Shown here piece after piece: positions 29,925 to 46,187 of a stretch of 46,187 nt of DNA (position 1 is its first letter; the number at the start of each line of letters is the position of its first letter). Origin of the DNA: a virus; IMG/VR virus record IMGVR_UViG_3300030334_000025; one strand, given 5' to 3'. Under the pieces are notes generated by a model that saw only the letters and a list, made by a program, of their open reading frames with translations, made no database searches and was not told where the DNA came from. A program made the position numbers and the translations under genes.

Positions 29925-29953
29925 GGACGCAATAGAAACCAGAGGAGATGACT

Positions 29954-30181
29954 ATGCCAATTCCGCAAACGGTCGATGAGAGCGGCCATATCACCTATCA
30001 CCTAAATGCTGAGCAAATTGCCGCATTTGATAAGATTGTTAGTCAGCCCGCTGCTGAGTGTGAGTCGTTTGCCGAGCTGCTAAACAAGACGCCTATTTGG
30101 GCGCGCAATGCTGACGAAGATTGGGGCGTTTACGAAGAAGATCGCGGCTTACTCAAGATTGACGAAAACGATGGGTTTTGA
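29954..30181 (+). CDS. Acidic hypothetical protein, about 75 aa
   Basis: AGGAG at 29943-29947 favours ATG 29954 (6-nt spacing) over the track's 29948. Confidence 0.6.
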   Translation: MPIPQTVDESGHITYHLNAEQIAAFDKIVSQPAAECESFAELLNKTPIWARNADEDWGVYEEDRGLLKIDENDGF

Positions 30182-30183
30182 TT

Positions 30184-30564: not shown

Positions 30565-30588
30565 CTAGCAAAGGGAACTATTACAGGG

Positions 30589-30594
30589 TACAAT
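30589..30594 (+). promoter_or_regulatory. -10-like TACAAT immediately upstream of a terminator hairpin and the homing-endonuclease start codon
   Basis: GGGTACAATTAAGCC. The same nested layout occurs at 34155 and 44859. Confidence 0.35.
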
Positions 30595-30595
30595 T

Positions 30596-30621
30596 AAGCC
30601 ACTGCACAGGTGGCTTTTTTT
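30596..30621 (+). terminator. Intrinsic terminator between terS and the GIY-YIG gene
   Basis: Stem AAGCCAC/GTGGCTT, a 7-nt loop and T7 running directly into ATG 30622. Confidence 0.7.
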
Positions 30622-32726: not shown

Positions 32727-32728
32727 GT

Positions 32729-32798
32729 AAAACCTATCACCACCACGCCACACCATTAGAAATTACAATTAGCCACCCTGCCATCGGTGGTTTATTGT
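32729..32798 (+). promoter_or_regulatory. Box-promoter element copy E2 (AAAACCTATCACCACCACGCCACACCATTAGAAATTACAATTAGCC-N18-TATTGT)
   Basis: It starts 3 nt after the terL stop. Box at 32768-32774, 18-nt spacer with CCACC/GGTGG, TATTGT at 32793-32798, 35 nt before ATG 32833. Confidence 0.55.
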
Positions 32799-32832
32799 TT
32801 GGGGTGTCAGTAAACAACAGGAGCAAACAACC

Positions 32833-33870
32833 ATGACAAACCTAATCACACGCACCAACGGCGACCCGTTCGCCACCGAAGGCAACGCCAAGTGCGCACG
32901 CACGTGGAAGGGGCTGACGCATACGCACGAGGTTATTCAGCATGGCGGCGGGTGGGTGCTGCGTGAGAAGCAGAGTGGTGCGGAGCAGGATGGCTCGGCG
33001 GTAACATTACAGCCAGGCGATTACATCGCTACCGAAGGGCTTAGCGAAGATGACTATCACGCCGTGGCAGAAGCGTTTATGGCGGCGGGGGCGGGGAAGG
33101 GGGAGTATCCGTCGGATGGACAGTTTTATCCTTATTTTGGATGGCGCGAGAAAATCGATAATCTGTACCATGGATATAACGGTTCAGGATGGGGAGAGCG
33201 CCAACTCACCCTATCCCAAATCCTGAGCGCGACGAATGCGGTTGGTGATGAGCCGCAGATGACTAGCAAACAATGGGTGCCGGAGGTGGGGGATCGTGAG
33301 GAAGTCGCAGAGGAAGGATATTTGCCAATTCCAAGCCCCAAACAGTGCGCCGAAGATTTGCGCGATGATGGTTTTCACCCGCAAGCGACTTGCGTAGAGC
33401 GCATGATGGAAGCTTTGGAATGGATAGCACGCAATGCCTGTCAGTCATCGCGCCTTGAATGTCAGAAGCGCGCTTCTGCTGCATTAGCCACCGAAGAAGA
33501 CCGCGCGGTTGAGGAGATGGTTAGCCATGTGCAGGCGTCTGATAATTTCCATAGCTTTTCCAAGCGACTGTACCAGCAAGGCTACCGCAAACAACCACAG
33601 CCAGCAGACGATGATTGTGTTAAGTGGCCAGAAAATATTGAGTGGGGGCGGCCAGCTGACGATATGACTGACCCGGCGAATTGGCGGGCGGGGGATGTTA
33701 TTCAATTTATTTCGCATGGAGGATGCTTTACGCATGGTGAGGAGTACATTGTTCGTGATCCGAGAGACCCTGATGATGATGATTTTGATTTAATTGATGA
33801 CGATGGCGATGTACGTGCTTGGGATTTTGCCCCCGCTGGTGAAAACTTCCGCTTCGTCCGCCGCCCATAA
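32833..33870 (+). CDS. Acidic hypothetical protein, 345 aa
   Basis: AGGAG RBS. The C-terminal Asp-rich tract is DPRDPDDDDFDLIDDDGD. No motif was recognised. Confidence 0.7.
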   Translation: MTNLITRTNGDPFATEGNAKCARTWKGLTHTHEVIQHGGGWVLREKQSGAEQDGSAVTLQPGDYIATEGLSEDDYHAVAEAFMAAGAGKGEYPSDGQFYPYFGWREKIDNLYHGYNGSGWGERQLTLSQILSATNAVGDEPQMTSKQWVPEVGDREEVAEEGYLPIPSPKQCAEDLRDDGFHPQATCVERMMEALEWIARNACQSSRLECQKRASAALATEEDRAVEEMVSHVQASDNFHSFSKRLYQQGYRKQPQPADDDCVKWPENIEWGRPADDMTDPANWRAGDVIQFISHGGCFTHGEEYIVRDPRDPDDDDFDLIDDDGDVRAWDFAPAGENFRFVRRP

Positions 33871-33917
33871 CACCACAGCGCGATAAATACCAAGCCGCTC
33901 AAAAGGGCGGCATTGAG
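33871..33917 (+). promoter_or_regulatory. Degenerate seventh copy of the box element
   Basis: CACCACAGCGCGATAAATACCAAGCC-N15-ATTGAG aligns with the left half of E3, but the box and spacing are decayed. Confidence 0.25.
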
Positions 33918-33926
33918 GAGAAAGAA

Positions 33927-34142
33927 ATGAGCTACTCAAAGCGCGTAAAGCTAGTGTTAGAAAGGCTTTCTAAAATTGCAGGCGACGAAGACGAAGCCGA
34001 ATCAATTGCTGGCCCGTTAGACATGATGCTTGATGATCTTCACGAGGAAGACTTTTTTGGCACGGAAGGCCAATGCGACCCCAGGGGGGATTTTAGAGAA
34101 GAGGTGTGGAGCATTGACCGAGTTCAAGGCGTAGACGACTAA
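33927..34142 (+). CDS. Small, highly acidic protein, 71 aa
   Basis: GAGGAG RBS. By manual count it has 20 D/E and 8 K/R. Confidence 0.65.
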   Translation: MSYSKRVKLVLERLSKIAGDEDEAESIAGPLDMMLDDLHEEDFFGTEGQCDPRGDFREEVWSIDRVQGVDD

Positions 34143-34154
34143 GTCAAGCCTAGG

Positions 34155-34163
34155 TGCTACAAT
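34155..34163 (+). promoter_or_regulatory. Extended -10 promoter TGC-TACAAT nested just upstream of the terminator hairpin before the portal gene
   Basis: GGTGCTACAAT is followed at once by the 5' arm of the hairpin at 34164. Confidence 0.45.
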
Positions 34164-34197
34164 AAGCCCCAAGACATCACCTCTTCGGGGCTTTTTT
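34164..34197 (+). terminator. Intrinsic terminator closing cassette C2, abutting the portal start codon
   Basis: Stem AAGCCCC/GGGGCTT, extended by AAGA/TCTT, then a T-run leading straight into ATG 34198. Confidence 0.75.
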
Positions 34198-35601
34198 ATG
34201 GCACAGCAAGACAAAGAAACACGGCTAACGATGGCCGTTAATCAGTACATGAGTGAGCGTCGGTTGGCGTCGATGCGGCAAGCGCTAGCTTATGGCGCGG
34301 GCTATAACGCCAGCAGCGACACGAAAAGACCGAAGTCCTGGGAGAATTATGGATTTCCCAATACTCTGAACTTCTACGACTTCTTAAATCTCTACCAGCG
34401 CAACAGCCTAGCCAAAGCTGGCGTCAATCGCCTGATCCGCAAAACATGGCAGGATAACCCATGGATCATCCAGGGTGACACGACGGACGAAAAGACCACC
34501 GAAAAACCGTGGGAACGCGACGTTCGAAAGCTGTTCAAGCGCCTGAACGTCTGGCAGAAATTCCAGGATGCTGACCGCCGCCGGATGGTGGGGGCTTACT
34601 CTGGTTTAATCCTGCGAGTGGCTGACAATGCGCGATGGGATGAAGAGTTGCAGCCCGGTGGTGACCTGATTGAGATTATCCCGGCATGGGAAGGGCAATT
34701 AACGCCTGGAACATGGGATGAAAACCCCAACAGCCCGCGCTACGGCCAGCCTACAACGTGGAACTACAACGAGGGCAACGTTCAGACCGCAGACACACCA
34801 CCGCCAGCCCGTAGCGTGACGATTCACCATAGCCGTGTCGTGATTGTAGGCGATTACCGGGAAGGCGTTAGCGAGCTGGAAGCGGCGTATAACGACTTCG
34901 TTTCGGTAGTGAAAATTACCGGGGGCAGCGGCGAAGGTTTTCTGAAGAATGCTTCACGGCAGTTAAGCGTTGAGTATAGCGACTCACAGAGCCTGCCAGA
35001 GCTTGCCCGGTCGTATGGCGTCGGCATGGATGAGCTGAACGAACGCCTGAACGAGATGATGGCCGACCTAAACTCGGTCATTGACGCAGCAGCGTTCACG
35101 ACCGGGGGCAAAATTAACCCGCTGGTGGCTAACGTCCCCCAGCCGAAAGAGCATTTCGAGATACAGGTACAATGCATCGCTGCGTCGTTGGAAATACCGA
35201 CGAAGGTGCTTATCGGCAATCAGCAGGGCGAGCGGGCAAGCACCGAAGACCAGGATGACTTTAATAACCGCTGTCAGGCGCGCCGGGGGGGCGACCTGCA
35301 AACGGATATTCGCCGCTTTATCGACCGACTGATGGAATACCGCATCATTCCACCCGTGCCGGGAGATGAATACGAAGTGATGTGGTCTGAGCTGAACGAC
35401 GCCTCGCTTGCTGATAAACTGGCGATGCTAAAGACCGCTACCGAGGCCGTTAAAAACATGGCAGGCACCGGGGAGATTATCGCGACAGGTGACGAATTGC
35501 GGGCTATTATTGGGTGGGAGGCGCTGACAGAGCCTGAGGTGCCTGCGGATGATTTGGGTGATGATAATGGAGAATATGATGAGCGAATGGCAGCCGATTG
35601 A
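34198..35601 (+). CDS. Portal protein
   Basis: 467 aa between terL and the MuF-like gene, with an acidic C-terminus. The size and position fit the portal family that accompanies this scaffold and capsid type. Confidence 0.8.
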   Translation: MAQQDKETRLTMAVNQYMSERRLASMRQALAYGAGYNASSDTKRPKSWENYGFPNTLNFYDFLNLYQRNSLAKAGVNRLIRKTWQDNPWIIQGDTTDEKTTEKPWERDVRKLFKRLNVWQKFQDADRRRMVGAYSGLILRVADNARWDEELQPGGDLIEIIPAWEGQLTPGTWDENPNSPRYGQPTTWNYNEGNVQTADTPPPARSVTIHHSRVVIVGDYREGVSELEAAYNDFVSVVKITGGSGEGFLKNASRQLSVEYSDSQSLPELARSYGVGMDELNERLNEMMADLNSVIDAAAFTTGGKINPLVANVPQPKEHFEIQVQCIAASLEIPTKVLIGNQQGERASTEDQDDFNNRCQARRGGDLQTDIRRFIDRLMEYRIIPPVPGDEYEVMWSELNDASLADKLAMLKTATEAVKNMAGTGEIIATGDELRAIIGWEALTEPEVPADDLGDDNGEYDERMAAD

Positions 35602-35845
35602 TACAGCGCCACTTGATGGAACGATGGTAGATTTATGGGTAGTAGCCGTACCCAGGTATAACGCATACTTTGAAAAATATTTCACAGATGGTGATGATCA
35701 AAGGCTTACAGACTGCATATTTGAAGATGACCAATGGAAGCACTGGACAGAAATTGGCGACCATGAATACGATCCGCACCATGAGCCAATCGGGGATTGT
35801 TTTAAGCCTACCCACTGGATGCCACTTCCGGAGCCACCACAATGA
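35579..35845 (+). CDS. DUF551-like protein
   Basis: WQPIDTAP...THWMPLPEPP matches the DUF551 pattern. The start is ambiguous (35549-35579); GGAG at 35569 favours 35576 or 35579. Confidence 0.6.
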   Translation: MSEWQPIDTAPLDGTMVDLWVVAVPRYNAYFEKYFTDGDDQRLTDCIFEDDQWKHWTEIGDHEYDPHHEPIGDCFKPTHWMPLPEPPQ

Positions 35846-35955
35846 CCGAAACACACCAACACTGGTACGAAACCGCCAAATACCAAGAGGTGGCTGCGTT
35901 TCAGTGGTATTTGCAGATGAAGTGGCTGGATATGCGGCCTAAGGGGGTAGTATGA
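35842..35955 (+). CDS. Micro-ORF, 37 aa, ATGA-coupled at both ends
   Basis: MTETHQHWYETAKYQEVAAFQWYLQMKWLDMRPKGVV. Support is positional only. Confidence 0.35.
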   Translation: MTETHQHWYETAKYQEVAAFQWYLQMKWLDMRPKGVV

Positions 35956-36143
35956 CCATCTTGCAAACATGGCGCTGGGTAGCCGCAACCGCAACGCTAG
36001 ACAAGTGGTATCTGGCCGCTCGATTGCCCAGCAATCATAGCCCGTTAGGGTGCCGCGCTGCCGGATTGGTTTGGCATGACCGTTATTTGTGTGGTGATGC
36101 TGACCGTGGGCGTAGGTGGGATGGGCGGAATGTTGTTAATTGA
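35952..36143 (+). CDS. Doubtful 63-aa ORF, W/R-rich
   Basis: ATGA-coupled to the upstream micro-ORF, but the composition is atypical. A competing 27-aa hydrophobic ORF (36076-36159) overlaps it in another frame. Confidence 0.3.
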   Translation: MTILQTWRWVAATATLDKWYLAARLPSNHSPLGCRAAGLVWHDRYLCGDADRGRRWDGRNVVN

Positions 36144-36155
36144 GGGGATGGCGGG

Positions 36156-36308
36156 ATGAATCATTACATATGCATGAGATGCTTAAAGCCTGTAACTAAG
36201 GCGAAGATGAGTGAGCCGACAGCAAAAGACATAAAGAAAGGTGGCTCATCAAAGCGCTGCCCAGGGTGTGGGCATAGAACATTTATGACTGGCGGTCACA
36301 ATGCCTAA
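36156..36308 (+). CDS. Zinc-ribbon micro-protein, 50 aa, absent from the ORF track
   Basis: MNHYICMRC...KRCPGCGH has two CxxC pairs. It overlaps the MuF-like gene start by 8 nt. Confidence 0.5.
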   Translation: MNHYICMRCLKPVTKAKMSEPTAKDIKKGGSSKRCPGCGHRTFMTGGHNA

Positions 36309-37206
36309 ATACCCCACCCTGCCCCGAAACACAGAGAACCCAGTGGGGCACGCCCGCCTGCAACAACAGACCGTGAGCCGCTTAAAACGCGGCTTGCGCG
36401 ACGTTCGCCGATGGGTGCTAGAGCGTTTTGAGGAGATACCAAAGCGTGAGATCACGATTAACGCTCAAGTGCCGGGCTATGTGGTCAACGAAACGCGCTA
36501 CGAATACCTAATTAGCGTGGAGGAGCTGCGACTTATTGTTGAGGAGATTCGCCGTCGCCTGGGCATCGAGGTGCCACCGGATTATATGGCCGCGCAAACG
36601 GTGCTAGCGTATGAAGCAGGCACCGGAACCGCCGTGGCACAGTTAGCGGCGCTGACGGATGACTATACGCGGGAGATAACGCAGGTCTTGGCGTCGGAGC
36701 CGTGGCAGCGGCGGGTGGCGTTGATTCGTTCGCGGGTGTTCGAGCAGATGGACTCATTCAACGGCGATACGGCTACGGAGCTGGGGCGTGTGCTTAGCCA
36801 GGGCGTTGAGGATGGGCTGAATCCGCGTACGGTGGCGAAGGATATACGGGCGCGGTTTAAGGTTAGCGAGAGCAGAGCAGAGCGTATCGCTAGGACTGAG
36901 GTGACTTCAGCGCTGCGCAGAGCTGCACGAGACGAGAATCAAGACGCACAAGAGCGCTTAGGCATTCGCACGGCTATGTTGTGGTACAGCGCATTACTGC
37001 CGAGCACACGCCAAAGCCACGCTTCCAAACATGGGCGCACATTCAGTGCGCAGGAGGTTGCGGAGTTTTATAGCCAGGGGGGTGAATCGATAAATTGCCG
37101 CTGCTCGCAGCAAAGCGTACTCCTAGACGAATCAGGCCAGCCCATCCTTGGCCCGCTAAAAGAACGCATGCAAAAACAGCGCGCCGCGTTTGAGCCTGAT
37201 AGCTAA
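36301..37206 (+). CDS. Head morphogenesis / minor capsid protein, SPP1 gp7 / Mu F-like
   Basis: ERIARTEVTSALRRA...RQSHASKHG...INCRCS fits the Mu F family pattern. It lies downstream of the portal gene. Confidence 0.85.
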   Translation: MPKYPTLPRNTENPVGHARLQQQTVSRLKRGLRDVRRWVLERFEEIPKREITINAQVPGYVVNETRYEYLISVEELRLIVEEIRRRLGIEVPPDYMAAQTVLAYEAGTGTAVAQLAALTDDYTREITQVLASEPWQRRVALIRSRVFEQMDSFNGDTATELGRVLSQGVEDGLNPRTVAKDIRARFKVSESRAERIARTEVTSALRRAARDENQDAQERLGIRTAMLWYSALLPSTRQSHASKHGRTFSAQEVAEFYSQGGESINCRCSQQSVLLDESGQPILGPLKERMQKQRAAFEPDS

Positions 37207-37273
37207 CCCCTATCATCCACCGCTACACGATAAAAAAATACCATTAGCCCCGGCAGCCGCTGGGGTTTATTGT
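37205..37273 (+). promoter_or_regulatory. Box-promoter element copy E3 (AACCCCTATCATCCACCGCTACACGATAAAAAAATACCATTAGCC-N18-TATTGT)
   Basis: Box at 37243-37249. The spacer hairpin CCCCGGC/GCTGGGG has the same stem as the capsid terminator at 42211. TATTGT at 37268-37273 lies 24 nt before ATG 37297. Confidence 0.55.
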
Positions 37274-37296
37274 TGATGTATAACTAGAGAGGAGGG

Positions 37297-37746
37297 ATGT
37301 TAGTGAGAGATCATGATGTTTTTTACAAGATGCGCCTCGCGATAGACGAGCAAGGAATCAATGTTATCACCAAGGAGTTAGTTAGCATCCACGAATCTGA
37401 ATGCTGGCATTGGTGCATTGAGAAAACGAGGGCTGGCTATATTAGGAGCTATCAGCGCGAAGATGAAAGCCTCTTACAGGCTGCTAAGCGAAGCGGCGAA
37501 AAGATACACAAGGTCGCCAAGGTTGGTAGCCGAGTAGCATTCAAGACCCTTCCTGACGCCTTTGACCATTTAATGATGCTTAAGCGAAAGCAGATTAATC
37601 ACATGAGGCGAGAGATCGCGATACTGGAGGATTTTACGAAAAAAGCGGATGGATTGGATATTGAGTCAATCAATCCGGACAGCCATGGTGATCGCGTTAT
37701 TCCAGATACTCACGAGGTGGTTCACGGCCACTACCGATTCGATTAA
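37297..37746 (+). CDS. Hypothetical protein, 149 aa, lower G+C
   Basis: GAGAGGAGGG RBS. An in-frame GTG at 37303 is an alternative start. Confidence 0.65.
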   Translation: MLVRDHDVFYKMRLAIDEQGINVITKELVSIHESECWHWCIEKTRAGYIRSYQREDESLLQAAKRSGEKIHKVAKVGSRVAFKTLPDAFDHLMMLKRKQINHMRREIAILEDFTKKADGLDIESINPDSHGDRVIPDTHEVVHGHYRFD

Positions 37747-37786
37747 ACAACCCCGCCCGCCTAGCGCGGGCATGGAGGAGGAAGTG

Positions 37787-38020
37787 ATGACCAGGAAGAG
37801 ATCTGCTAGATGCGTTGTTTGTTACGAAGCAGCGTGGAAAAAGTATGGAACAAGAACCACCTACTCAGGTGATCCATTGGTGTACAGTTATAAGGGAACA
37901 TGGGAGCACGTAAGAGTTATCAAGGGGCCTCGCGGCGGTTACAAGGCTGAATGTAAAAACTGCGGGCATATTTGGCGAATATCCTCAAAAACAGCATCTT
38001 CTACCGTAGGTATATTATGA
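37787..38020 (+). CDS. Zinc-ribbon hypothetical protein, 77 aa
   Basis: GGAGGAGGA RBS before ATG 37787, with CVVC...CKNCGH. The track's longer N-terminus crosses the hairpin at 37755-37771. Confidence 0.6.
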   Translation: MTRKRSARCVVCYEAAWKKYGTRTTYSGDPLVYSYKGTWEHVRVIKGPRGGYKAECKNCGHIWRISSKTASSTVGIL

Positions 38021-38208
38021 CCACCTACACCATCCCCAGCTTCACAGGCCGCCACATTCAGGGCGGCGGCAGCGAAACCAAATTCCAGAGCCGCATCCGC
38101 AACGACGTGTATGCGACCGAAAAACACTACGCCAAGCGGCCATTGATTGACAGACGTCTAGAAGAAATGGCGCTTGAGCGTGAATTGAAGGAGTGGAGTT
38201 ATGACTGA
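38017..38208 (+). CDS. Hypothetical protein, 63 aa
   Basis: ATGA overlap with the upstream gene. Confidence 0.55.
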   Translation: MTTYTIPSFTGRHIQGGGSETKFQSRIRNDVYATEKHYAKRPLIDRRLEEMALERELKEWSYD

Positions 38209-38464
38209 AAGAGAGCGTTTTGAGGCGTGGGCGCAGAGCCGAAACATGGGTTTGTGCGTAATGGTGGACGGAAGTTATTACCATACGGCAGCGGATGAGG
38301 CTTGGGCCGCATGGCAAGCCCGCTGCCCGGATGGGTACAAATGCGTGCCCGTCGAGCCAACTGAGGAGATGGTAGACGCCGCTAGTGAGGCTTACATGCC
38401 GTTTGGTGATATGGCGCTCGCGATCCAGGCGGCAATTGTTTATGCGCCGGAGGAACAGCAATGA
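38201..38464 (+). CDS. Hypothetical protein, 87 aa
   Basis: The ERFEAWA...AWAAWQA pattern is common in small phage proteins. It overlaps its neighbours. Confidence 0.6.
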   Translation: MTERERFEAWAQSRNMGLCVMVDGSYYHTAADEAWAAWQARCPDGYKCVPVEPTEEMVDAASEAYMPFGDMALAIQAAIVYAPEEQQ

Positions 38465-38892
38465 ACCGCGCCCAAAAACGCGCCCAGGCTGGCGAGATTA
38501 AGCGCCGTAAGCGGCTGGTGAGTCAGAAGCAGTACCAACACTATCAGACGAACGCACGGCGCTGGTGTGTAGGTATTAAGGCCACTGGTCGGCATATCGG
38601 CGGGGAATTTGAGGGTGAATGGTCGTTTCCGGCGCATATTCCGCAGCGTAAGCAGCAGGACATTGCCACGTACGCCACGCACGCCCCGTTGCGGTGGCGC
38701 ATCATTGCCAGGCTAGTGCTGCGCTATGATGACGGCAGCATGGAAACACGCGAGGCTGATGCAGAGGTAGGGCAAGCGCAGATCATTAGCGAGCTGCAAG
38801 AGGCGCGTGAGGCGTTGATGCGTGACTTGGAGCGCACCGCTAATGGGCGGTATGTGTGGGATAAACTGTATTTGATGGAGTGTTTGGGATGA
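38461..38892 (+). CDS. Basic hypothetical protein, 143 aa
   Basis: ATGA-coupled, with a K/R-rich N-terminus. Confidence 0.6.
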   Translation: MNRAQKRAQAGEIKRRKRLVSQKQYQHYQTNARRWCVGIKATGRHIGGEFEGEWSFPAHIPQRKQQDIATYATHAPLRWRIIARLVLRYDDGSMETREADAEVGQAQIISELQEAREALMRDLERTANGRYVWDKLYLMECLG

Positions 38893-39095
38893 GTAACATG
38901 ATAGCAAAAGTTAAATTTATGCCAGGAACATCATTAGTGGATGCAGTGCGAGAGGCTAAAAACAAAGCCATCTTGTGGGATGTAAAAAAGGTTGAGTTCT
39001 GCTTTAACGGCAAGTATTTCAGCATAGGCAAATCTGCGGACATAGAGAAATGCGTGAAAGCATATCAGGATGGGGCAGATTTTATTTTCAGCTAA
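38889..39095 (+). CDS. Hypothetical protein, 68 aa, lower G+C
   Basis: ATG 38889 forms an ATGA overlap with the upstream stop. Confidence 0.55.
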   Translation: MSNMIAKVKFMPGTSLVDAVREAKNKAILWDVKKVEFCFNGKYFSIGKSADIEKCVKAYQDGADFIFS

Positions 39096-39111
39096 CCGCG
39101 CTGCAACACCA

Positions 39112-39136
39112 ACCCGCCACCTCGGCGGGTTTTTTT
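39112..39136 (+). terminator. Intrinsic terminator closing cassette C3
   Basis: Stem ACCCGCC/GGCGGGT, loop ACCTC, then T7. Confidence 0.85.
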
Positions 39137-39137
39137 G

Positions 39138-39148
39138 TGTGCTGAAAT
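39138..39148 (+). promoter_or_regulatory. Weak family member TGTGC-TGAAAT fused to the terminator T-run
   Basis: TRTGn is present, but the hexamer has G at position 2. Confidence 0.3.
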
Positions 39149-39180
39149 ATGCACAGCTTGCGCTTACGTCAACGGCCAAT

Positions 39181-39481
39181 CGTTACGTTTTAAAAGTGCG
39201 TAACGCCACAAAATAGCCAGCGTAACGCGCAACTTGTTGTTTTAATTAAAAAATTACAGCCGTTACGTTTGTTACGATGTTTTGCGAACGATAGTCACAT
39301 ATACATAAACACTGATAGGCACTTAGATAGACATACCTCTCTATATATATATCTATTTTCTGTAATTATTGTTATATATGTCACAAGCCTTTGAATCCAT
39401 TGGATTTTTCACCGGTACAAGTTTAATTAGGACTGTAACGCTTGTAACGTCTGTAACGGCACACTGTTTTTCGTCGTAACG
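39181..39481. repeat. Module B: AT-rich core bounded by oppositely oriented CGTAACG heptamer arrays; paralog of 27186-27469
   Basis: Heptamers lie at 39181, 39199, 39221, 39261, 39271 (left) and 39435, 39444, 39453, 39475 (right). It carries the same 17-mer (39260-39276) and 19-mer (39414-39432) as module A. Confidence 0.85.
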
Positions 39482-39533: not shown

Positions 39534-39563
39534 TTGCACGCACCGATAGCCTTGTGCTATACT
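39534..39563 (+). promoter_or_regulatory. Promoter TTGCAC-18-(TGTGC)TATACT for the head operon
   Basis: It has both a -35-like hexamer and a TRTGn extended -10, 28 nt before ATG 39591. Confidence 0.55.
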
Positions 39564-39590: not shown

Positions 39591-40736
39591 ATGGCCGACC
39601 AAATCCGCGTCAACATCAAGCACCGCGTCAACAACGCCGCCATCAAGCGCGAAAAGCGCAATGGTCGTGAGGTGATTGTGGTGCCTAGCGCTGTGGCGAA
39701 GTTCGACACGGTGTTAAACAACATCTTTTACCCACGCGCTGAGCTAGAGGCGAGCTACCAGCAGTTGGAAGGTTTGCCCGCCCCGCTTGGGCATCCGGTG
39801 GTGAATAACCAGTTTGTTAGCGCGCGCACGCCTGAGGCCATCAACGGCTTTTGGGCGGGCGCGTGGAACACCAACCCACGCATCGAAGGCGACCGCGTTT
39901 TTGCCGATAAGGTTATCGACGTGGAGTTTGCCCAGAATAGCGAGAACGGGCGCAAGCTGCTGGCGGCGATTGACGAAGGCAAGCCGATTAGTACCAGTAC
40001 CGGATTGCTGATGCAGCGCGAACCAGCACCCGAAGGCGCTGACTATGAGTGGGTAGGCAACAGCTTTGCATTCGATCACGATGCGATTTTAATTTCCGAG
40101 ACGCCCGCCATTGGCACCGATGCAGGCGTTGGAATGATGGTCAACTCCTCCGGCGAGCAAGTCGAAGTCGTTAACTCTGAGCTAGAGATGGACGACGACT
40201 ACGTTACCGCGATGGTGTTTGAAATCGTGGATAGCTACGAGCGCAAGGAAAAACAGAAGCGCAACGCTGGATTAGTCGAACGCATCAAAAACGCAGTACG
40301 CGCCGTGCTGAACGGCGATAAAACCGAAGAGGCCGCTGGCCTGCAAACCAACTCTCAAACGTCTACCGAGGAACCGCAAATGACGACTGAAGAGCTACAG
40401 GCCATGCTCGATAAGCAGGCCGAAACACTGCAAGCGAATCAGGCGCAAGCTATCGCGTCTGCCGTGTCTGACGCAGTCAAACCCATACAAGACAAGCTCG
40501 ACGCGATCAACGCCGAGTCCGAAGCCGCTGCAAAAGCTGAGAAAGAAACGCTTGAGGCGACTGTGGTAGAAGCCAAGCTAGCGACCGAAGATGAAGCCAA
40601 GGCGCTCGACGTAAACGCCCTGCGCATCATGGCGCGTAACTGCAAGGCACCGAAGGGCGCGGATCATCCGCTGAATGGTGGGCGGTTGAGCACGAATGCC
40701 GATAAACTTGAATTTGAAGCACCGGAGGCAATCTAA
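39591..40736 (+). CDS. Scaffolding protein, possibly fused to a prohead protease (DUF2213-like N-terminus)
   Basis: The N-terminal ~170 aa globular domain (LPAPLGHP...GKPISTSTG) is followed by an A/E/K-rich coiled coil. It lies directly upstream of the decoration and capsid genes. Confidence 0.55.
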   Translation: MADQIRVNIKHRVNNAAIKREKRNGREVIVVPSAVAKFDTVLNNIFYPRAELEASYQQLEGLPAPLGHPVVNNQFVSARTPEAINGFWAGAWNTNPRIEGDRVFADKVIDVEFAQNSENGRKLLAAIDEGKPISTSTGLLMQREPAPEGADYEWVGNSFAFDHDAILISETPAIGTDAGVGMMVNSSGEQVEVVNSELEMDDDYVTAMVFEIVDSYERKEKQKRNAGLVERIKNAVRAVLNGDKTEEAAGLQTNSQTSTEEPQMTTEELQAMLDKQAETLQANQAQAIASAVSDAVKPIQDKLDAINAESEAAAKAEKETLEATVVEAKLATEDEAKALDVNALRIMARNCKAPKGADHPLNGGRLSTNADKLEFEAPEAI

Positions 40737-41179
40737 TGGCTCGTTATAGCAAAATCTACGCAGGCCCGGTCTCCGAGCTATTGCCGCAGGTAATGGAGCG
40801 CCCGTCGGCTGTGGACATCACCCCCGGCTCTATCGTTACGGTTAACGCCAGTGATGAATTTGAGCCACATGGCACCGCTGGTGCGCGCGGAACTTACTTG
40901 GTGGCCCAAGAGAACTACATGAAGCTGGAAGGCGCGGACGATGTTATCCCTGCTGGTGATACCGTGGTTGCCGCCCGCCCACTTGATGAACAGTTCTTCA
41001 ATGTCCGCGTAGCCGCTGGGACTTACGTGCAGGGGTTTACTGAACTAGCATCCGCTGGCGATGGTACGCTAGCCGCAGCCACCACTGGGCAAGAAGTGCT
41101 GTTCTATTCAGAAGAATCCGTGACACTCGCAGAGGCAGACTTGCTGCGTGTTCGCAAAGCTACAGGAGCGATTGCGTAA
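40736..41179 (+). CDS. Head decoration-like protein, DUF2190-like
   Basis: 147 aa between the scaffold and capsid genes, with TAATG overlaps on both sides. Confidence 0.45.
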   Translation: MARYSKIYAGPVSELLPQVMERPSAVDITPGSIVTVNASDEFEPHGTAGARGTYLVAQENYMKLEGADDVIPAGDTVVAARPLDEQFFNVRVAAGTYVQGFTELASAGDGTLAAATTGQEVLFYSEESVTLAEADLLRVRKATGAIA

Positions 41180-42189
41180 TGCTACATTTTGATAAGCAGT
41201 TAATCACTAACAGCAAGCTGCACGCGCAAAAGTGGCAGGAGCTTTCGCTCAACCGCCGCTACTTTGCCCAGCGTGAGCAAGAGCTTGTGGGTAACGCCAT
41301 CACCAAGCCGCAACCATGGTTACAGCTCGATAGCGTGACTGCTCGCGTAATGCGCGACAACGCAGGCCAAGTCATCATGGGTGATTTGATGCCGCTGGCG
41401 ACCACGGTCAATATCGGCAAGGTCGTTCACGGCTATCGCTTCAACTCTGATGGCGCGAACACTACCCAGCGCTCTATCAGCGGCCAGAAGCCGCAGCCAA
41501 TGGATAAAGGCAGCTATGACTTCCGTGGCGTGCCGGTTCCTATCTTCACTAACGGCGTAGGTCGAGAGTGGCGCGAGTGGAACGTCCTGCAAAACGATGA
41601 TTTTGACGCATGGGCCGAAGATGTAGAAAAGGCCACGTATGACATGCGCACCGACATGGCTAACTACTTGCTGGACGGTGATTCTACCATTCAGTTTGAT
41701 GGCTACCAGGGTTACGGTATCCGCAACTCGCCGTATACGCAATCTGTCGATATGACGGGCATCGACCTGACCACCGCCACCACCGTGCAATGGGAAAACT
41801 TCTTGGCGCAAACGCTAGGCGGCGCGGCTGACGATAACCTCGTTACCGAGCCGATGAACCTCTATGTTTCGCCCGAAATTGCGCGCAACCTAGACCTGCC
41901 GTACAACCAGGATGAGTACCTCTCTGGTACGCGCTTCCAGCGGCTTGCCACCAACCGCCGAATCAATGAAATCAAGGTTGATTATGCGCTTTCTGGTAAC
42001 GAGTGGACGGCGTTTGTGCCTAACCGCCGCTACATTCGTCCGGTCGTGGGTATGCCCGTTGGTACGCAGATGATGCCGCGCACCTACCCAATGGACAACT
42101 ACCAAATGTTGATCATGGGTGCGATGGGCTTTGAGATCGTAGCAGACGCCAATGGCCGTTCGGCTGTGTTCTATGGTGTTGGTTCCTAA
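41179..42189 (+). CDS. Major capsid protein
   Basis: 336 aa, at the end of the head operon and followed by a strong terminator. Synteny with the scaffold and decoration genes supports the call. Confidence 0.75.
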   Translation: MLHFDKQLITNSKLHAQKWQELSLNRRYFAQREQELVGNAITKPQPWLQLDSVTARVMRDNAGQVIMGDLMPLATTVNIGKVVHGYRFNSDGANTTQRSISGQKPQPMDKGSYDFRGVPVPIFTNGVGREWREWNVLQNDDFDAWAEDVEKATYDMRTDMANYLLDGDSTIQFDGYQGYGIRNSPYTQSVDMTGIDLTTATTVQWENFLAQTLGGAADDNLVTEPMNLYVSPEIARNLDLPYNQDEYLSGTRFQRLATNRRINEIKVDYALSGNEWTAFVPNRRYIRPVVGMPVGTQMMPRTYPMDNYQMLIMGAMGFEIVADANGRSAVFYGVGS

Positions 42190-42210
42190 TCGCTAGGCAC
42201 TAAAACAGAA

Positions 42211-42236
42211 ACCCCGGCTTAGGCTGGGGTTTTTTA
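42211..42236 (+). terminator. Intrinsic terminator after the capsid gene
   Basis: Stem ACCCCGGC/GCTGGGGT with one G-U pair, loop TTAG, then T6. Confidence 0.85.
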
Positions 42237-42357
42237 TTGCTTGCTAGACAAGTGTGCGCTATGGTTGTATTGCGGCAGCGTCTGCGCAGACGTGGTGGAG
42301 TTGAGCGCCCACTAGCCGCACCCATAAACGCTCGCCTAATGCTTAAAGGTGAATTAT

Positions 42358-42735
42358 ATGAATAGAATTACGCTAAAAAAACCAACCATTAAAGACTTTT
42401 TGGTTCATTGGTACATCTCAGCTTGCGGTATTGCACTGCCGTTCGTTGACGGCGGCCTGTTTAATGTTGCCAATTACTCTATTCTTGTTTATGGATGGCT
42501 GTTCAGCGTCTTGTTTTTTGGCGCTTGCTTTATGAAGCACTTGGACACGTTGCCAGACATAACCCCATGGCATCAGGTCGTTACTTCAGTTCCTCGAATC
42601 GCTTGTATCATGCTGTTGATTTATTTTGAGTTCTATTGGCACGCTAGCTTGCTGTTGTGCTGCTGGATGTTCGCCGCCGCCATTGTCAATAAGACAAAAA
42701 CCGCATACAAAGAGCAAGAGAATAGCACCGCCTAG
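42358..42735 (+). CDS. Polytopic membrane protein, about 125 aa, lower G+C
   Basis: It has 3-4 hydrophobic helices. AAAGG lies 8 nt before ATG 42358 (the track uses GTG 42349). Terminators flank it on both sides. Confidence 0.65.
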   Translation: MNRITLKKPTIKDFLVHWYISACGIALPFVDGGLFNVANYSILVYGWLFSVLFFGACFMKHLDTLPDITPWHQVVTSVPRIACIMLLIYFEFYWHASLLLCCWMFAAAIVNKTKTAYKEQENSTA

Positions 42736-42742
42736 CCCTGCC

Positions 42743-42767
42743 AGCCCGCCACAGCGCGGGCTTTTTT
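42743..42767 (+). terminator. Intrinsic terminator after the membrane-protein gene
   Basis: Stem AGCCCGC/GCGGGCT, a 6-nt loop, then T6. Confidence 0.85.
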
Positions 42768-42777
42768 GTGCTAAAAT
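42767..42777 (+). promoter_or_regulatory. Extended -10 promoter TGTGC-TAAAAT fused to the terminator T-run
   Basis: TTTTTTGTGCTAAAATCAG lies 26 nt before ATG 42803. Confidence 0.55.
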
Positions 42778-42802
42778 CAGAGAAACATCTCAGGAGCCAA
42801 TT

Positions 42803-43075
42803 ATGCTAATCGAAATCACCCGCCGTGGCGTTTATCGCGGAACCGGCGAGATGGTGCCAGTAGGCACACAGGTTGAAGTGCCGGACGATTTTACCGGATG
42901 GGCGAATAAATACCGTGTCGTATCTAGTGGCGCTGATAAGACGCTAGAAGTCGCCACGCCTAAGCGCCCGCGCAAGAAACGCCAGCCAAAGCAGGAACAA
43001 GAGCCGGAACAGTCTAGGCTAGACACTAAGTCCGAGTTTGATGGTAACGATGCGCGTGGTGGCGATTATGAGTAA
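42803..43075 (+). CDS. Hypothetical protein with a basic, low-complexity C-terminus, 90 aa
   Basis: AGGAG lies 6 nt before ATG 42803. The track's N-terminal extension (from 42626) runs through the terminator and overlaps the previous gene. Confidence 0.6.
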   Translation: MLIEITRRGVYRGTGEMVPVGTQVEVPDDFTGWANKYRVVSSGADKTLEVATPKRPRKKRQPKQEQEPEQSRLDTKSEFDGNDARGGDYE

Positions 43076-43283
43076 AGTAGTTAGGCTGCCGAGCCAAGAG
43101 TTTAAAGGCGGCGAGACAAGTTTTGTGTCATGCCCGTGTGGCACGCAAGAAAGCATGGTGCCTGTTGTGATGCACGGTGGCGAGCCGTTTATTGCCGCGC
43201 TTATCTGTTCTGAATGCAGCATCGAAGTTCCGGTAGTGAACGGCTATATTAAAATGGGGGATGCGACCTATGATGACGAATAA
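43068..43283 (+). CDS. Cysteine-motif (zinc-ribbon-like) protein, 71 aa
   Basis: CPCG...CSEC. Its start overlaps the upstream stop. Confidence 0.55.
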   Translation: MSKVVRLPSQEFKGGETSFVSCPCGTQESMVPVVMHGGEPFIAALICSECSIEVPVVNGYIKMGDATYDDE

Positions 43284-43298
43284 CGAAGGCTACCGCCC

Positions 43299-43682
43299 AT
43301 GATAACCACCGACGAAGCCACCGCCTATCTACGCGAGCTGGGTATTACCGTTCCGTCATTCCTGCTAGAAGCCATCACTGAGGAAGCTGGCGGAATCCAA
43401 GACTGCTTAGACGCCAACAATGTCAGCGCAAGCCGCCAAGTGGCTATTTATACCTACTTGATTGGGTTGTTGGCCCTGTCAGGTGGCGCGCGCCAAGTTA
43501 CCTCTCAGTCCGCGCCTTCTGGTGCTAGTCAGTCGTTCAAGTACAGTAACCCAAGCGACGCTTATGACCAGATATATGCAGCGCTGCAAGTTGTGGATAC
43601 CCACGGATGCGCTGCACCGCTGACGCCTGCTAAGCCGGGCGGGAGTACTGGGTTTATGGTGGTCAAGGGATCGAGGTGCTAG
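43299..43682 (+). CDS. Head-tail connector / head completion candidate
   Basis: 127 aa. The call rests on its position after the capsid block and an N-terminal helical region typical of gp6-like adaptors. No firm motif was recognised. Confidence 0.4.
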   Translation: MITTDEATAYLRELGITVPSFLLEAITEEAGGIQDCLDANNVSASRQVAIYTYLIGLLALSGGARQVTSQSAPSGASQSFKYSNPSDAYDQIYAALQVVDTHGCAAPLTPAKPGGSTGFMVVKGSRC

Positions 43683-43743
43683 ACACCACGGCCTAACGCT
43701 GCCATACTCTACCCACTCCTTGTTGTGTGTTGCTCCTCCTATT

Positions 43744-43769
43744 GACCGCCCTCCTGGCGGTCTTTTTTT
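43744..43769 (+). terminator. Intrinsic terminator
   Basis: Stem GACCGCC/GGCGGTC, loop CTCCT, then T7. Confidence 0.85.
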
Positions 43770-43779
43770 GTGCTACACT
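43769..43779 (+). promoter_or_regulatory. Extended -10 promoter TGTGC-TACACT, overlapping a second TAAAAT hexamer, fused to the terminator T-run
   Basis: TTTTTTTGTGCTACACTAAAATCAGA has the same flanks as 42767-42783, with an extra CACTA. Confidence 0.5.
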
Positions 43780-43785
43780 AAAATC

Positions 43786-43897
43786 AGATACGGCAGACCG
43801 CCATAAGGAGGTTGATCCTATCTGATAATGGGTTGCGCGTCGTGAGACGGTGATCGCAACACTAGACGCCCCGGCACCTACCGGGGCGTTGCCGTTT
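43786..43897 (+). ncRNA. Candidate small non-coding transcript or structured leader
   Basis: About 110 nt between the promoter at 43769 and the 9-bp GC hairpin ACGCCCCGG/CCGGGGCGT (43866-43889). It has no plausible ORF and contains AAGGAGG between inverted repeats ATCAGATA/TATCTGAT. Confidence 0.3.
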
Positions 43898-43906
43898 ATA
43901 GGTGGT

Positions 43907-43973
43907 GGCTATCGAGTGGCGTGAGTCGATAGAAAAATACCATTAGCGGGGAGGTGGTGGGGTGGGCTATTGT
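43907..43973 (+). promoter_or_regulatory. Box-promoter element copy E4 (CTATCGA...TCGATAGAAAAATACCATTAGCG-N19-TATTGT)
   Basis: Box at 43942-43948, G-rich 19-nt spacer, TATTGT at 43968-43973, 29 nt before ATG 44002, which has a GAGGAG RBS. Confidence 0.5.
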
Positions 43974-44001
43974 TTGGGGATACCGGCGAGGAGAATGAAC
44001 C

Positions 44002-44580
44002 ATGATTTATGCAGTGAATAACACCACAAAAGAACATCGCGTGATTACAGGGGAAGCCGGTGAAGTAGATGATTGGCGCAGAAAGATGCAAGGCTGGAAT
44101 GTCGTCAAAGCCGATGCCGATGGGTGGATTGAGTGGAGTGGCCATGCTGATAACCCACTGCCAGAACATTCAGCCGTTAGTTATCATGATGGCGGCGCTG
44201 CTTGTCGCTCAATTGCACAGTTAGCCCCATGGAGCCATATCATCGCCTACCGCCCCATCATCGACCAGCCCGCCAGCGAGGAAGCCCAACCGTGGGAGCC
44301 AGCGGCAGGCGAACCAGCTCGCACCAGTGGCGGTGATTGCATGGTGTTGGCGATAGACCGTAAGCGCAATCGAGCGGCCATCCGCTGGGACGATGGCGAG
44401 CTAGGCGTGGTCAAAATCGAAGTTATCAAGCAGCGGACAACACCGCGCGAGCAGTGGCTAGCGGCAGCAGAGCACGCAATCGAAAGCACAACAGGCGAGC
44501 CAGCCCAAAGCAGCCACCTAGAGATTATCCACGACGCCCTAGCAAGCGGCGAACTACCGACACCGGAGCAAACAAAATGA
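44002..44580 (+). CDS. Hypothetical protein, 192 aa
   Basis: Good RBS. No motif was recognised. Confidence 0.7.
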   Translation: MIYAVNNTTKEHRVITGEAGEVDDWRRKMQGWNVVKADADGWIEWSGHADNPLPEHSAVSYHDGGAACRSIAQLAPWSHIIAYRPIIDQPASEEAQPWEPAAGEPARTSGGDCMVLAIDRKRNRAAIRWDDGELGVVKIEVIKQRTTPREQWLAAAEHAIESTTGEPAQSSHLEIIHDALASGELPTPEQTK

Positions 44581-44834
44581 CCCACAACATCGTAACGCAA
44601 AAATCAAAAACCGCTGCCGTGTTGCTGCGCCTCAGCCTGGGCAGCATTGGCGCGCACCGCTGGTATCTGGGCCATCCGTGGATTGCCTTCGGCTGGATTG
44701 TGCTTACCGTTGCGTGTTTGGCATCCGGCGCGATGTTGGTGATTGCCGCGCTGTTATGCATTGAAGCGTTGGTGTTGCTGTTTCGGAGAAAGGCGTATTA
44801 TCGGCGGTTTAAGTGGGTGGAGTTAGCCGCCTAG
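44577..44834 (+). CDS. TM2-domain membrane protein, 85 aa
   Basis: GSIGAHRWYLG matches the TM2 GxxGxHRFYxG signature, and there are two hydrophobic helices. ATGA overlap with the upstream gene. Confidence 0.7.
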   Translation: MTHNIVTQKSKTAAVLLRLSLGSIGAHRWYLGHPWIAFGWIVLTVACLASGAMLVIAALLCIEALVLLFRRKAYYRRFKWVELAA

Positions 44835-44856
44835 CCAATAACACACCCCGCCGCCC

Positions 44857-44867
44857 TATGCTATACT
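44857..44867 (+). promoter_or_regulatory. Extended -10 promoter TATGC-TATACT nested just upstream of a terminator hairpin
   Basis: TRTGn plus TATACT is followed at once by the 5' arm of the hairpin at 44868. Confidence 0.5.
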
Positions 44868-44894
44868 GCCCCATAATCTTTTATGGGGCTTTTT
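44868..44894 (+). terminator. Intrinsic terminator closing cassette C4
   Basis: Stem GCCCCATAA/TTATGGGGC (9 bp), loop TCTT, then T5. The ATG at 44883 lies inside the 3' arm. Confidence 0.8.
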
Positions 44895-45263
44895 ATTGTG
44901 TCAAACATAGCGAGCTGGTCATACGCCCACGGCCCCGCGACCGTGTGGCCCGCAGGCGGCACCGATGAATGGGGGCAACCTATCGGCGGCACGCCTTACA
45001 TTATCCCTCGCGTGGGATACGAGGGCGGCGGCGATGTGGCGCGTGATGACAACGGGACTGAGTTCACGCCCAATCAAACGTTTCGCTTCGAGGCCGCGCT
45101 AGATTCGCCACTAGTGCCAGAGCGTGAGTGGTATATCCAATTAGGCGACCACACCGCCCTAACCACCGCGCCGCCCACTGCTGAACGTATCCGCGCCATC
45201 CGCTGGTGGCCGATAGATGAACTCGAGCCGGGCGGACTGCCTGACTGGGAATTGATGACATAA
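44883..45263 (+). CDS. Head-tail module hypothetical protein; start uncertain (ATG 44883 or in-frame GTG 44898)
   Basis: The ORF resumes the structural series. ATG 44883 is buried in the terminator stem, whereas GTG 44898 follows the T-run. Confidence 0.6.
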   Translation: MGLFIVSNIASWSYAHGPATVWPAGGTDEWGQPIGGTPYIIPRVGYEGGGDVARDDNGTEFTPNQTFRFEAALDSPLVPEREWYIQLGDHTALTTAPPTAERIRAIRWWPIDELEPGGLPDWELMT

Positions 45264-45271
45264 GGGCGGTT

Positions 45272-45637
45272 ATGGACGATATGCAAACGCGATTAATGCG
45301 GGCAGAGTGGAGAATTGAGGCGTTAGAGGACGGTTATCGGACGCAAACCGACCGCATCACCGACCTGTCTACCCGCATGGATACGCATCATAAAGAAGTG
45401 ATGGCCGCCATTGGCTCACTAAAAGACGACCGTGCAAAAGCACAGGGCGCTGCTGAGGCCCGACTGCTAGACGCTCAGACACGGCAGAATCGGCTTAAGT
45501 GGTTATCGTTTGGGCTTGCCGCTATTGGTACGCTGATTGCCCTTGGCTGGATCGGCGAGGCAAAGGCGATCACTCACACCGACCAAGTTAGCAAGCGAAT
45601 ACAAGCCCAGCATCACGCGAGAGATTGCAATGATTAG
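45272..45637 (+). CDS. Coiled-coil protein with one C-proximal transmembrane helix, 121 aa
   Basis: The N-terminus has a heptad-like pattern. The hydrophobic segment is WLSFGLAAIGTLIALGWIG. Confidence 0.6.
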   Translation: MDDMQTRLMRAEWRIEALEDGYRTQTDRITDLSTRMDTHHKEVMAAIGSLKDDRAKAQGAAEARLLDAQTRQNRLKWLSFGLAAIGTLIALGWIGEAKAITHTDQVSKRIQAQHHARDCND

Positions 45638-45809
45638 GTGGGCGGCTATGGGCGCGGTGATGGCGACGTTGGGGTGGTTAATATACCCTGGCGAGCCTAT
45701 TATTGTTGGCGGCGCTACCGCTATTTGTCAGAGCGGCGCTTATTCAGTGTCGCAATCTAGGCGCGGCACATGCGCGCACCATGGTGGGGTGAGGGAGTGG
45801 GTGAAGTAA
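45630..45809 (+). CDS. Small exported or membrane protein with a DUF3761-like motif, 59 aa
   Basis: N-terminal hydrophobic helix, then CQSGAYSVSQSRRGTCAHHGGV, which resembles the CxDGxxSxSxxxxGxCSxHGGV pattern. 8-nt overlap with the upstream gene. Confidence 0.45.
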   Translation: MIRWAAMGAVMATLGWLIYPGEPIIVGGATAICQSGAYSVSQSRRGTCAHHGGVREWVK

Positions 45810-45828
45810 TGCAATCATAGCGAAATAC

Positions 45829-45837
45829 TGCTAAAAT
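45829..45837 (+). promoter_or_regulatory. Extended -10 promoter TGC-TAAAAT
   Basis: ACTGCTAAAATCAA lies 29 nt before ATG 45866. Confidence 0.4.
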
Positions 45838-45865
45838 CAAGCCATAAATTAATGGAGGCTATGAA

Positions 45866-46187
45866 ATGGCGACTCTTAACGCGCAGCAAACTGTAGTGAC
45901 CGGATTAAACCCTACCTATGCAGCCGCAGACGTAGCAGGTGATGAATTTGACGCAGGCAATGGCGTGTTTTTGCATGTCGTCAACGATGACGTCAGCCCA
46001 CACACCGCGACAGTGGTATCTACGTTTAACGCAGAGCCGGGCATCGCGCCGACTAACGTAGACGTAACCATTCCGGCGGGCGAGTCGCGCATGATTGGCC
46101 CGTTTAGCGGCGTGTTTACCGCGAAAGGCACGATGCCCGTCAGTGTCACCTATGACGCTGTTGCCAGCATCACCGTGGCCGTCATCA
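45866..46187 (+). CDS. Conserved structural-module protein, 109 aa in total; continues at 100-107 after the junction
   Basis: GGAGG lies 7 nt before ATG 45866. The ORF is open to the window end and is absent from the track because it has no stop inside the window end. Confidence 0.7.
   Translation, partial: MATLNAQQTVVTGLNPTYAAADVAGDEFDAGNGVFLHVVNDDVSPHTATVVSTFNAEPGIAPTNVDVTIPAGESRMIGPFSGVFTAKGTMPVSVTYDAVASITVAVI
46089..46187. repeat. Terminal duplication identical to 1-99
   Basis: Exact 99-nt match to the window start. Confidence 0.95.

Follow-up and report, generated by a model that had tools for sequence, protein, structure and literature searches.

Module B, a non-coding element of about 300 bp at positions 39181-39481 of the virus record IMGVR_UViG_3300030334_000025, is probably a second, paralogous copy of the phage's iteron-type replication origin. 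The record, whose 46,187 nucleotides are referred to here as the window, carries module B ahead of the head genes and a related element, module A (27186-27469, no strand assigned), just downstream of a gene for a primase-helicase. In both modules short GTA(A/C)CG repeats (iterons) flank an AT-rich core of about 155 bp, and the inner-left pair points in the opposite direction to the right triple. By sequence and by analogy with characterized systems, we predict that module A is the primary origin, because its design resembles that of staphylococcal pathogenicity island (SaPI) origins, it directly follows the primase-helicase gene, and this arrangement is repeated in about 45 loci. Module B is then best compared with oriR, the late-region origin copy of Bacillus phage SPP1. 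A phage origin with a second copy of this kind has so far been characterized mainly in SPP1.

Architecture, paralogy and conservation of the two modules

The left side of module B comprises an outer group of sites at 39162-39227 (a degenerate GCTTACG at 39162, CGTTACG at 39181 on the bottom strand, and CGTAACG at 39199 and 39221 on the top strand) and an inner pair on the minus strand, CGTTACG-TTT-GTTACG at 39261-39276, which is part of the 17-mer CCGTTACGTTTGTTACG (39260-39276). The two sites of the inner pair are 10 bp apart. The right array (39434-39481, plus strand) consists of three copies of TGTAACG at 39434-39458 with 9-bp spacing, in which GTAACG starts at 39435, 39444, and 39453, and a fourth iteron, CGTAACG, at 39475-39481. 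The sequence CGTWACG is nearly palindromic, and iteron orientation hinges on its central base. By this measure the AT-rich centre lies between iterons of opposite orientation, bottom strand for the left pair and top strand for the right triple. The core itself (39277-39433, no strand assigned), a putative DNA-unwinding element, contains a (TA)n run at 39342-39352, AGATAGA and CTCTCTAT repeats, the conserved stretch TTGTTATATATGTCACAAGCC...TGGATTTTT, and a GTACCG variant site at 39413-39418. It also contains the 19-mer GGTACAAGTTTAATTAGGA at 39414-39432, whose sole other copy in the window is at 27425, in module A; no copies are expected by chance. The 17-mer likewise has an exact copy in module A, at 27266, and the distance from 17-mer to 19-mer is 154 bp in module B and 159 bp in module A. 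A preliminary description of this DNA had listed these heptamers, core repeats, 19-mer and distances, and every one is present where it was placed.

The iterons are strongly concentrated in the two modules. GTAACG occurs 37 times in the window, versus 19.4 +/- 4.4 expected, and none of 100 shuffled sequences reached 37; eight of the copies are in module B and six in module A. With the degenerate form GTAMCG, nine sites fall within the 301 bp of module B and ten within module A; the rest of the window (45.6 kb) has 31, or about 0.2 per 300 bp. Iteron-type origins served by a self-loading primase-helicase have six or more iterons of 5-8 nt clustered in non-coding DNA, and module B with its nine sites shares this feature. 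At the 60-, 100-, and 150-bp scales, no other duplex in the window is as unstable as the cores of modules B and A (z of 4.3-4.7), and the least stable of all is in module B (39322-39381, z = 4.7; 39287-39386, z = 4.5). Searches for Rfam families and tRNAs found none in this DNA, and no enrichment of DnaA boxes was detected. A scan of the modules for sigma-70 promoters returned one promoter-like site in each, no more than in shuffled sequence, at non-equivalent places (27331-27360 on the plus strand in module A; 39384-39355 on the minus strand in module B), and no promoter was conserved between them.

Modules A and B are in direct orientation and are about 71% identical over about 210 bp, which bears out the early proposal of a second copy that shares the architecture of module A. 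Their start-to-start spacing is 11,989-11,994 bp. The right iteron triple recurs in module A at 27446-27469, and each module has an intrinsic terminator on one side and the next rightward promoter on the other. Independent assemblies from ENA, Logan, and NCBI contain both modules at 100% identity, which rules out an assembly artefact. Orthologs of module A were identified in four relatives (L236, L255, L259, and L258). Close A orthologs are 87-92% identical to one another and close B orthologs 81-92%, versus 64-68% for A and B within one genome. The modules of L259 are far more diverged (56-61% for A and 65-71% for B), and of these only its module B clearly sides with its own clade. The grouping of A-modules and B-modules into separate clades indicates that the duplication is old and that both copies have been retained.

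Module B orthologs are present in at least seven lineages (L015, L225, L227, L016, L255, L259, and the window). Pairwise identities across five of these orthologs vary sharply by segment: 95% for the inner iteron pair, 94% for the right triple, 90% for the fourth iteron, 92% for the right half of the core, 76% for its left half, 48% for the spacer between module and promoter, and 65% for the 5' untranslated region. The sites at 39181 and 39199 are kept in all five, and the one at 39221 is replaced or moved in L225 and L227. Because identity in the iterons and the right half of the core is far above that of the spacer, we conclude that purifying selection acts on the iterons and on a specific part of the core. 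A lack of heptamer conservation in related phages had been named beforehand as evidence against function; the heptamers are instead the best-conserved part of the region.

The modules also differ in some details. A 20-nt inverted repeat at 27216-27235 and 27410-27429 (GTACCGGTCAAAAATCCAGT / ACTGGATTTTTTAGCGGTAC; 90% complementary, 174 nt apart) brackets the core of module A, and module B has only its right arm. An exact match to the IHF consensus, TATCAATAACTTA, occurs at 27248-27260, to the left of the inner iteron pair of module A; of the window's two modules only this one has it, and it is kept in the A-modules of L236 and L255. The B-modules of L255 and L016 have a version with one mismatch at the equivalent place.

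A candidate initiator and its adjacent iterons

The gene upstream of module A (24415-27132, plus strand) encodes a 905-amino-acid protein with a Pfam Prim-Pol domain at its N-terminus and with Walker A (GAGKS) and Walker B (FDEAE) motifs. An AlphaFold2 (AF2) model of residues 376-905 has a pLDDT of 80, and in Foldseek searches it matches the helicases of SCCmec Cch, poxvirus D5/E5, NrS-1, and SaPI PriRep1. The matches (5dgk, 8wh0, 8apl, 6lrb, and 7pds) have a Foldseek probability of 1.0 and TM-scores of only 0.3-0.4. Together, the Prim-Pol domain, the Walker motifs, and the matches to Rep/Cch/D5-like hexameric helicase folds indicate that, as modelled, the protein is a primase-helicase fusion of the self-loading initiator class. 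A search of the full primase sequence against the PDB found nothing, and the scanned proteins included neither a loader nor DnaB. The C-terminal domain (residues 776-905; window 26740-27129) is modelled with a pLDDT of 92.7 as two helix/beta-hairpin/helix units, and we suggest from this model that it may be an undescribed DNA-binding fold. An identical protein, P0001, is listed at NCBI as 'bifunctional DNA primase/polymerase [Herbaspirillum sp.]'. Every long contig carrying the identical protein is from a marine metagenome (Tara and other), and the label is probably an artefact of a mis-binned metagenome-assembled genome.

Module A begins 54 bp 3' of the stop codon of this gene and of its terminator; module B is 12 kb away. 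To place module A in context, we fetched 80 viral contigs that encode homologs of the 905-amino-acid protein and examined the 550 bp after each gene. About 45 of these contigs, with 34-63% protein identity, have a single cluster of a repeated, lineage-specific hexamer in this interval. Iterons include GTAAC(G/A), GTCAC(G/A), TGCACA, GTCAAC, TGCAAAC, GCATACA, and GTAGTC. The layout recurs at 39% protein identity, with left sites of mixed orientation, a CT/TA-rich core (for example CTCTCTATATCTATCTA), and three or four direct sites with 9-10-bp spacing. In one pair of loci (L049:11620-11900 and L055:11620-11900) the primases are 96% identical and a one-base difference, TGCAAAC versus TGCATAC, is repeated in every iteron copy. 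Such a concerted change is what a specific binding protein would be expected to impose. The pair is a clean comparison provided by nature, from which specificity residues could be identified. A separate search of viral contigs with the pattern GTAACG-N3-GTAACG-N3-GTAACG recovered mostly coding tandem repeats of giant viruses, and only two additional primase-linked modules, in L121 and L149.

We predict that the initiator is most likely this PrimPol protein with its superfamily 3 (SF3)-like helicase, and that it binds the iterons on both flanks of the core. It would open the core, where the duplex is the least stable in the genome, and load itself, after which the PrimPol domain would prime synthesis and the host polymerase would extend. 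Promoters firing away from each module may aid core opening via negative supercoiling. Module B, 12 kb downstream in the late region, could fire as a second initiation site. Alternatively, as proposed for SPP1 oriR (PMC3485210), initiator tightly bound at module B may stall the fork arriving from module A, and this stall would trigger a recombination-dependent switch to concatemer synthesis. Genes for an exonuclease, SSB, and a VRR-NUC nuclease are present in the phage, and their products would suit this route.

Module exchange between lineages and competing explanations

Relatives of the phage differ in the iterons found at the two sites, which we typed as G (GTAACG iterons), T (TATCCTGC-type), or C (AAATCACC-type). 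In L220, L224, L228, and L229 the late genes are up to 100% identical to those of the window and the replication block is different, with a 763-amino-acid PrimPol/PriCT_2/DUF3987 protein as the primase. Both sites in these genomes carry TATCCTGC-type iterons and a (TA)n core, and the two copies are paralogs about 68% identical to each other. In L259, whose primase is 83% identical to that of the window, both sites are G-type and share the same private variant of the inner pair, CGTTACGAACGGTACG. L255 has the same two modules as the window despite a different terminase.

Overall, three different PrimPol-helicase fusions occupy the same genomic site next to near-identical late genes (window 24415-27469, L220:4597-7210, and L227:1297-3560). 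In this order they are an SF3/D5-like fusion (GTAACG), a PriCT_2 plus DUF3987 fusion (TATCCTGC), and a PriCT_2 plus AAA_25 fusion (AAATCACC), each followed by its own iterons.

Module B is bracketed by transcription signals. On its left is an intrinsic terminator that closes the portal/head-morphogenesis operon (39111-39138, plus strand), with a hairpin at 39111-39131 and a T-run, and homology to relatives with other module types ends at this terminator. On its right, outside the module, is the head-operon promoter TTGCAC-18-TATACT (39534-39563, plus strand), which has a GCAC...GTGC hairpin in its spacer. Module B had been described as lying between these two signals, and it does. A simple sigma-70 scan misses the promoter, as its -35 matches at three of six positions, and the element is conserved in all relatives. 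From these comparisons of sequence, module B is exchangeable as a cassette whose edges are the conserved terminator and the conserved promoter.

A hairpin in the spacer is also a feature of an intergenic element family in the window, in which AAATTAC-N-ATTAGCC is followed by a G+C hairpin and then by TATTGT or CATACT. Copies are at 27527-27580, 32746-32799, 37221-37274, and 43927-43947, with a reverse complement at 19855-19883. These elements read as putative promoters, with a -35-like TTAGCC, an 18-bp hairpin-bearing spacer, and a -10-like hexamer. Relatives retain the copy at 27527 regardless of the type of the module that precedes it.

A number of observations weigh against module B as a second origin copy. 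In L225, L226, and L240, from three samples, module A is T-type and module B is G-type, and L227 combines a third initiator (PrimPol/PriCT_2/AAA_25) and AAATCACC repeats at site A with a G-type module B. Strict co-variation of the two sites therefore fails; among lineages that carry module B, five are matched and two mismatched, a ratio that by itself is not significant. Module B is missing from L258, which has a G-type module A, and from L260, so it is dispensable. Around the primase homologs described above, no second cluster was found within +/-10 kb at about 45 loci.

Protein comparisons are similarly unfavourable. The C-terminal 130 amino acids of the candidate initiator, although confidently modelled, had no PDB match at E < 0.1, and neither a known winged-helix domain nor a known iteron-binding domain was recognized in them. 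In window-by-window comparisons of primase identity across the family, no segment tracked iteron type (GTAAC-type versus others), and the idea of a specificity region within the primase was rejected on these grounds. Strand composition was also considered as evidence of fork arrest. GC skew at third codon positions of plus-strand genes falls from +0.105 (27609-39095) to -0.072 (39591-46088), and GC skew of these genes also drops or changes sign exactly at module B. L258 and L260, which have no module B, show this drop at the head gene as well; it thus reflects the composition of head and tail genes, not replication, and was set aside.

The absence of module B from some lineages bears on a role as a crr-like partner in cis, in which distant initiator sites at module B would loop to module A for initiation or would handcuff it. 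Looping has precedents in P4 ori/crr and in R6K, and handcuffing, as a means of negative regulation, in P1 incA. The same iterons do occur at two sites 12 kb apart, and module types match at both sites in five lineages. However, module B has the full design of an origin, including the unstable core, which goes beyond a set of binding sites; L258 keeps a G-type module A alone; T/G and C/G mismatched lineages circulate; and no further cluster lies within +/-10 kb of the related primase genes. Module A without B in L258, and the lack of a second cluster at those loci, suggest that module A is sufficient. We consider a crr-like partner unlikely. The preliminary description had suggested a crr-like second replication site, and of this the link to replication holds up (module A follows the primase-helicase gene, as in about 45 relatives), whereas a strict crr-like role is at odds with L258, L225, and L227.

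The same exceptions would be expected if module B were an orphan or relic, a copied origin carried along by recombination that is functionless or is used only by the initiator of a co-infecting phage. The cassette edges coincide exactly with the conserved terminator and promoter, lineages with mismatched or no modules exist, and for the mismatched ones a relic is a possible reading. Yet the iterons and the right part of the core are 90-95% conserved versus 48% in the adjacent spacer, and modules A and B have stayed distinct and intact since before the split of the window and L259, whose portal-region proteins are 68% identical. In addition, site B is occupied by two different iteron types (G and T), which points to selection, more than once, of an origin copy there. 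We give a relic a small chance. A more elaborate possibility, to which we assign a similarly small chance, is that the late-region copy is an exchangeable replication-mode switch cassette, at which bound initiator would halt the fork from module A and bring on concatemer synthesis, and that the orphan G-type module B of mismatched lineages is read by a co-infecting G-type initiator.

The position of module B also drew attention to transcription and packaging. The preliminary description had offered an upstream platform for late transcription; on this reading, a heptamer-bound phage protein would switch on the TTGCAC-18-TATACT promoter or set its timing. The distance from the end of the right array to the -35 is 53 bp, and both modules lie just upstream of rightward promoters. 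This proposal is not supported by comparison with relatives, in which the same promoter is kept unchanged with a G-type module, with a T-type replacement (L018 and L020), or with no module (L258 and L260). Moreover, this class of module is tied to primase-helicase genes whatever lies downstream, and its type follows the replication genes rather than the late genes. No transcription-factor gene co-varies with module type, and module-adjacent proteins are 87-98% identical across types. We regard such a platform as improbable. A pac site, a parS-like partition site, or a non-coding RNA gene is more improbable still. The location adjoins the head genes, and SPP1 pac and P1 parS have repeats that flank a bent or AT-rich centre. 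Against a pac site, L255 and L248 keep the same modules with a different terminase (Sf6-type small subunit, Terminase_3); against parS, no ParA or ParB match was found among the called genes; and against a non-coding RNA, Rfam gave no match and the modules have no conserved promoter-like site in common.

Genomic setting and comparison with known systems

An exact 99-nt terminal direct repeat (window 1-99 = 46089-46187) indicates that the window is a circular or complete genome of 46,088 bp. Tail genes occupy 0.1-13.7 kb. They are followed by a leftward early block at 13.7-22.3 kb (RecE-like exonuclease, SSB, methyltransferase, helicase, and dUTPase) and a rightward early block at 22.3-27.1 kb (superfamily 2 helicase, VRR-NUC nuclease, and the 905-amino-acid PrimPol protein). 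Located 3' of the latter are small genes, terS, a GIY-YIG homing endonuclease gene, terL, the portal gene (at 34198), and a Mu-F/SPP1-gp7-like head morphogenesis gene (at 36301). A scaffold-like gene and genes for a decoration protein and the major capsid protein begin at 39591. The homing endonuclease gene (30610-31335) has terS on one side and terL on the other. In L248 and L255 the entire packaging block is swapped for an Sf6-type terS, an HNH gene, and a Terminase_3 terL; the primase of these genomes is identical or near-identical to that of the window, and module A is identical in L248 and about 93% identical in L255.

Dozens of contigs of 20-50 kb from marine samples, those of Tara among them, encode the exact primase and portal proteins, so the phage is abundant, uncultured, and marine. 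The nearest cultured phages have only portal and capsid proteins in common with it, at about 40% identity. A blastn search of GenBank phages with the module B region returned no match, and portal-based scans of genomes and metagenomes added few further lineages.

Based on these features, the closest analogue of the module A/B pair is SPP1 oriL/oriR. In SPP1 the two origins share a design of repeats and AT-rich DNA and are 12-13 kb apart, with oriR in a gap of the head-gene block that is bracketed by transcription signals (PMC6316719, PMC3485210). The SPP1 record has the order portal, gene 7, a 336-bp gap (terminator, GACAC-type repeats, AT-rich stretch, and promoter), genes 8-10, scaffold, and capsid. 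Both phages thus have two paralogous repeat and AT-rich elements about 12-13 kb apart in a genome of about 44-46 kb. In both, the second copy has a terminator on one side and a promoter on the other; portal and gp7/Mu-F-like genes precede it, and the scaffold, decoration, and capsid genes lie beyond it. The phage studied here also has genes for the exonuclease, SSB, and junction nuclease that the SPP1 fork-restart model requires. There are also differences. SPP1 oriL is inside the initiator gene 38, whereas module A is intergenic and follows its gene. SPP1 uses a gp38-type origin-binding protein, a loader, a DnaB-type helicase, and host primase, in place of which we find one PrimPol-SF3-like fusion. 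The repeats differ in sequence and length and here are on both flanks of the core, and SPP1 oriR precedes the moron genes 8-10, whereas module B follows small genes. The iterons here are putative binding sites.

Module A considered by itself is more like the origins of SaPIs and other phage-inducible chromosomal islands. SaPI origins have iterons of 5-6 nt right after rep, with an AT-rich centre and opposite orientations on the two sides, and are read by the Rep helicase (PMC9371898). As in module A, six to twelve such iterons of lineage-specific sequence lie directly downstream of the rep open reading frame. The initiators are also alike, in that SaPI5 has a Pri-Rep fusion and the helicase half of the phage protein matches the folds of PriRep1 and Cch. 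In contrast to the phage, which is a 46-kb siphovirus-like virus and not a satellite, no second distant ori copy is described for SaPIs in PMC9371898, and the C-terminal winged helix with which SaPI initiators read iterons was not recognized in the phage protein.

Satellite phage P4 offers another comparison. Its alpha protein is a multifunctional primase, helicase, and origin-binding protein, and its crr, two 120-bp direct repeats with iterons, is required in cis. P4 and the phage studied here both have the same short iteron at two sites several kilobases apart and one multifunctional initiator protein. However, crr is not a full copy of the origin, whereas module B is a complete ori-like copy that some lineages dispense with. 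The occurrence of module A without B in L258 and of mismatched lineages argues that the second site is not required in cis as it is in P4.

If the reading of module B as an oriR-like origin copy is correct, the analysis provides a predicted origin, initiator, and second origin for an abundant lineage of uncultured marine phages. More broadly, candidate origins in many related contigs could be recognized by an iteron/AT-rich/iteron module directly following a PrimPol-helicase gene. The phage would also be a second independent system for a question posed by SPP1, whether an origin copy in the late region serves as an additional start site or as a barrier to forks that changes the mode of replication. 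Lineages with matched, mismatched, and absent modules, and three primase-helicase/iteron pairs at one site, are natural variants with which the function of the second copy can be addressed. Should the copy prove to be an exchangeable switch cassette, the SPP1 oriR mechanism would be widespread and modular among tailed phages that infect Gram-negative marine hosts. Should the mismatched copies be orphan origins read by a co-infecting phage's initiator, one phage would exploit or titrate the replication machinery of another.

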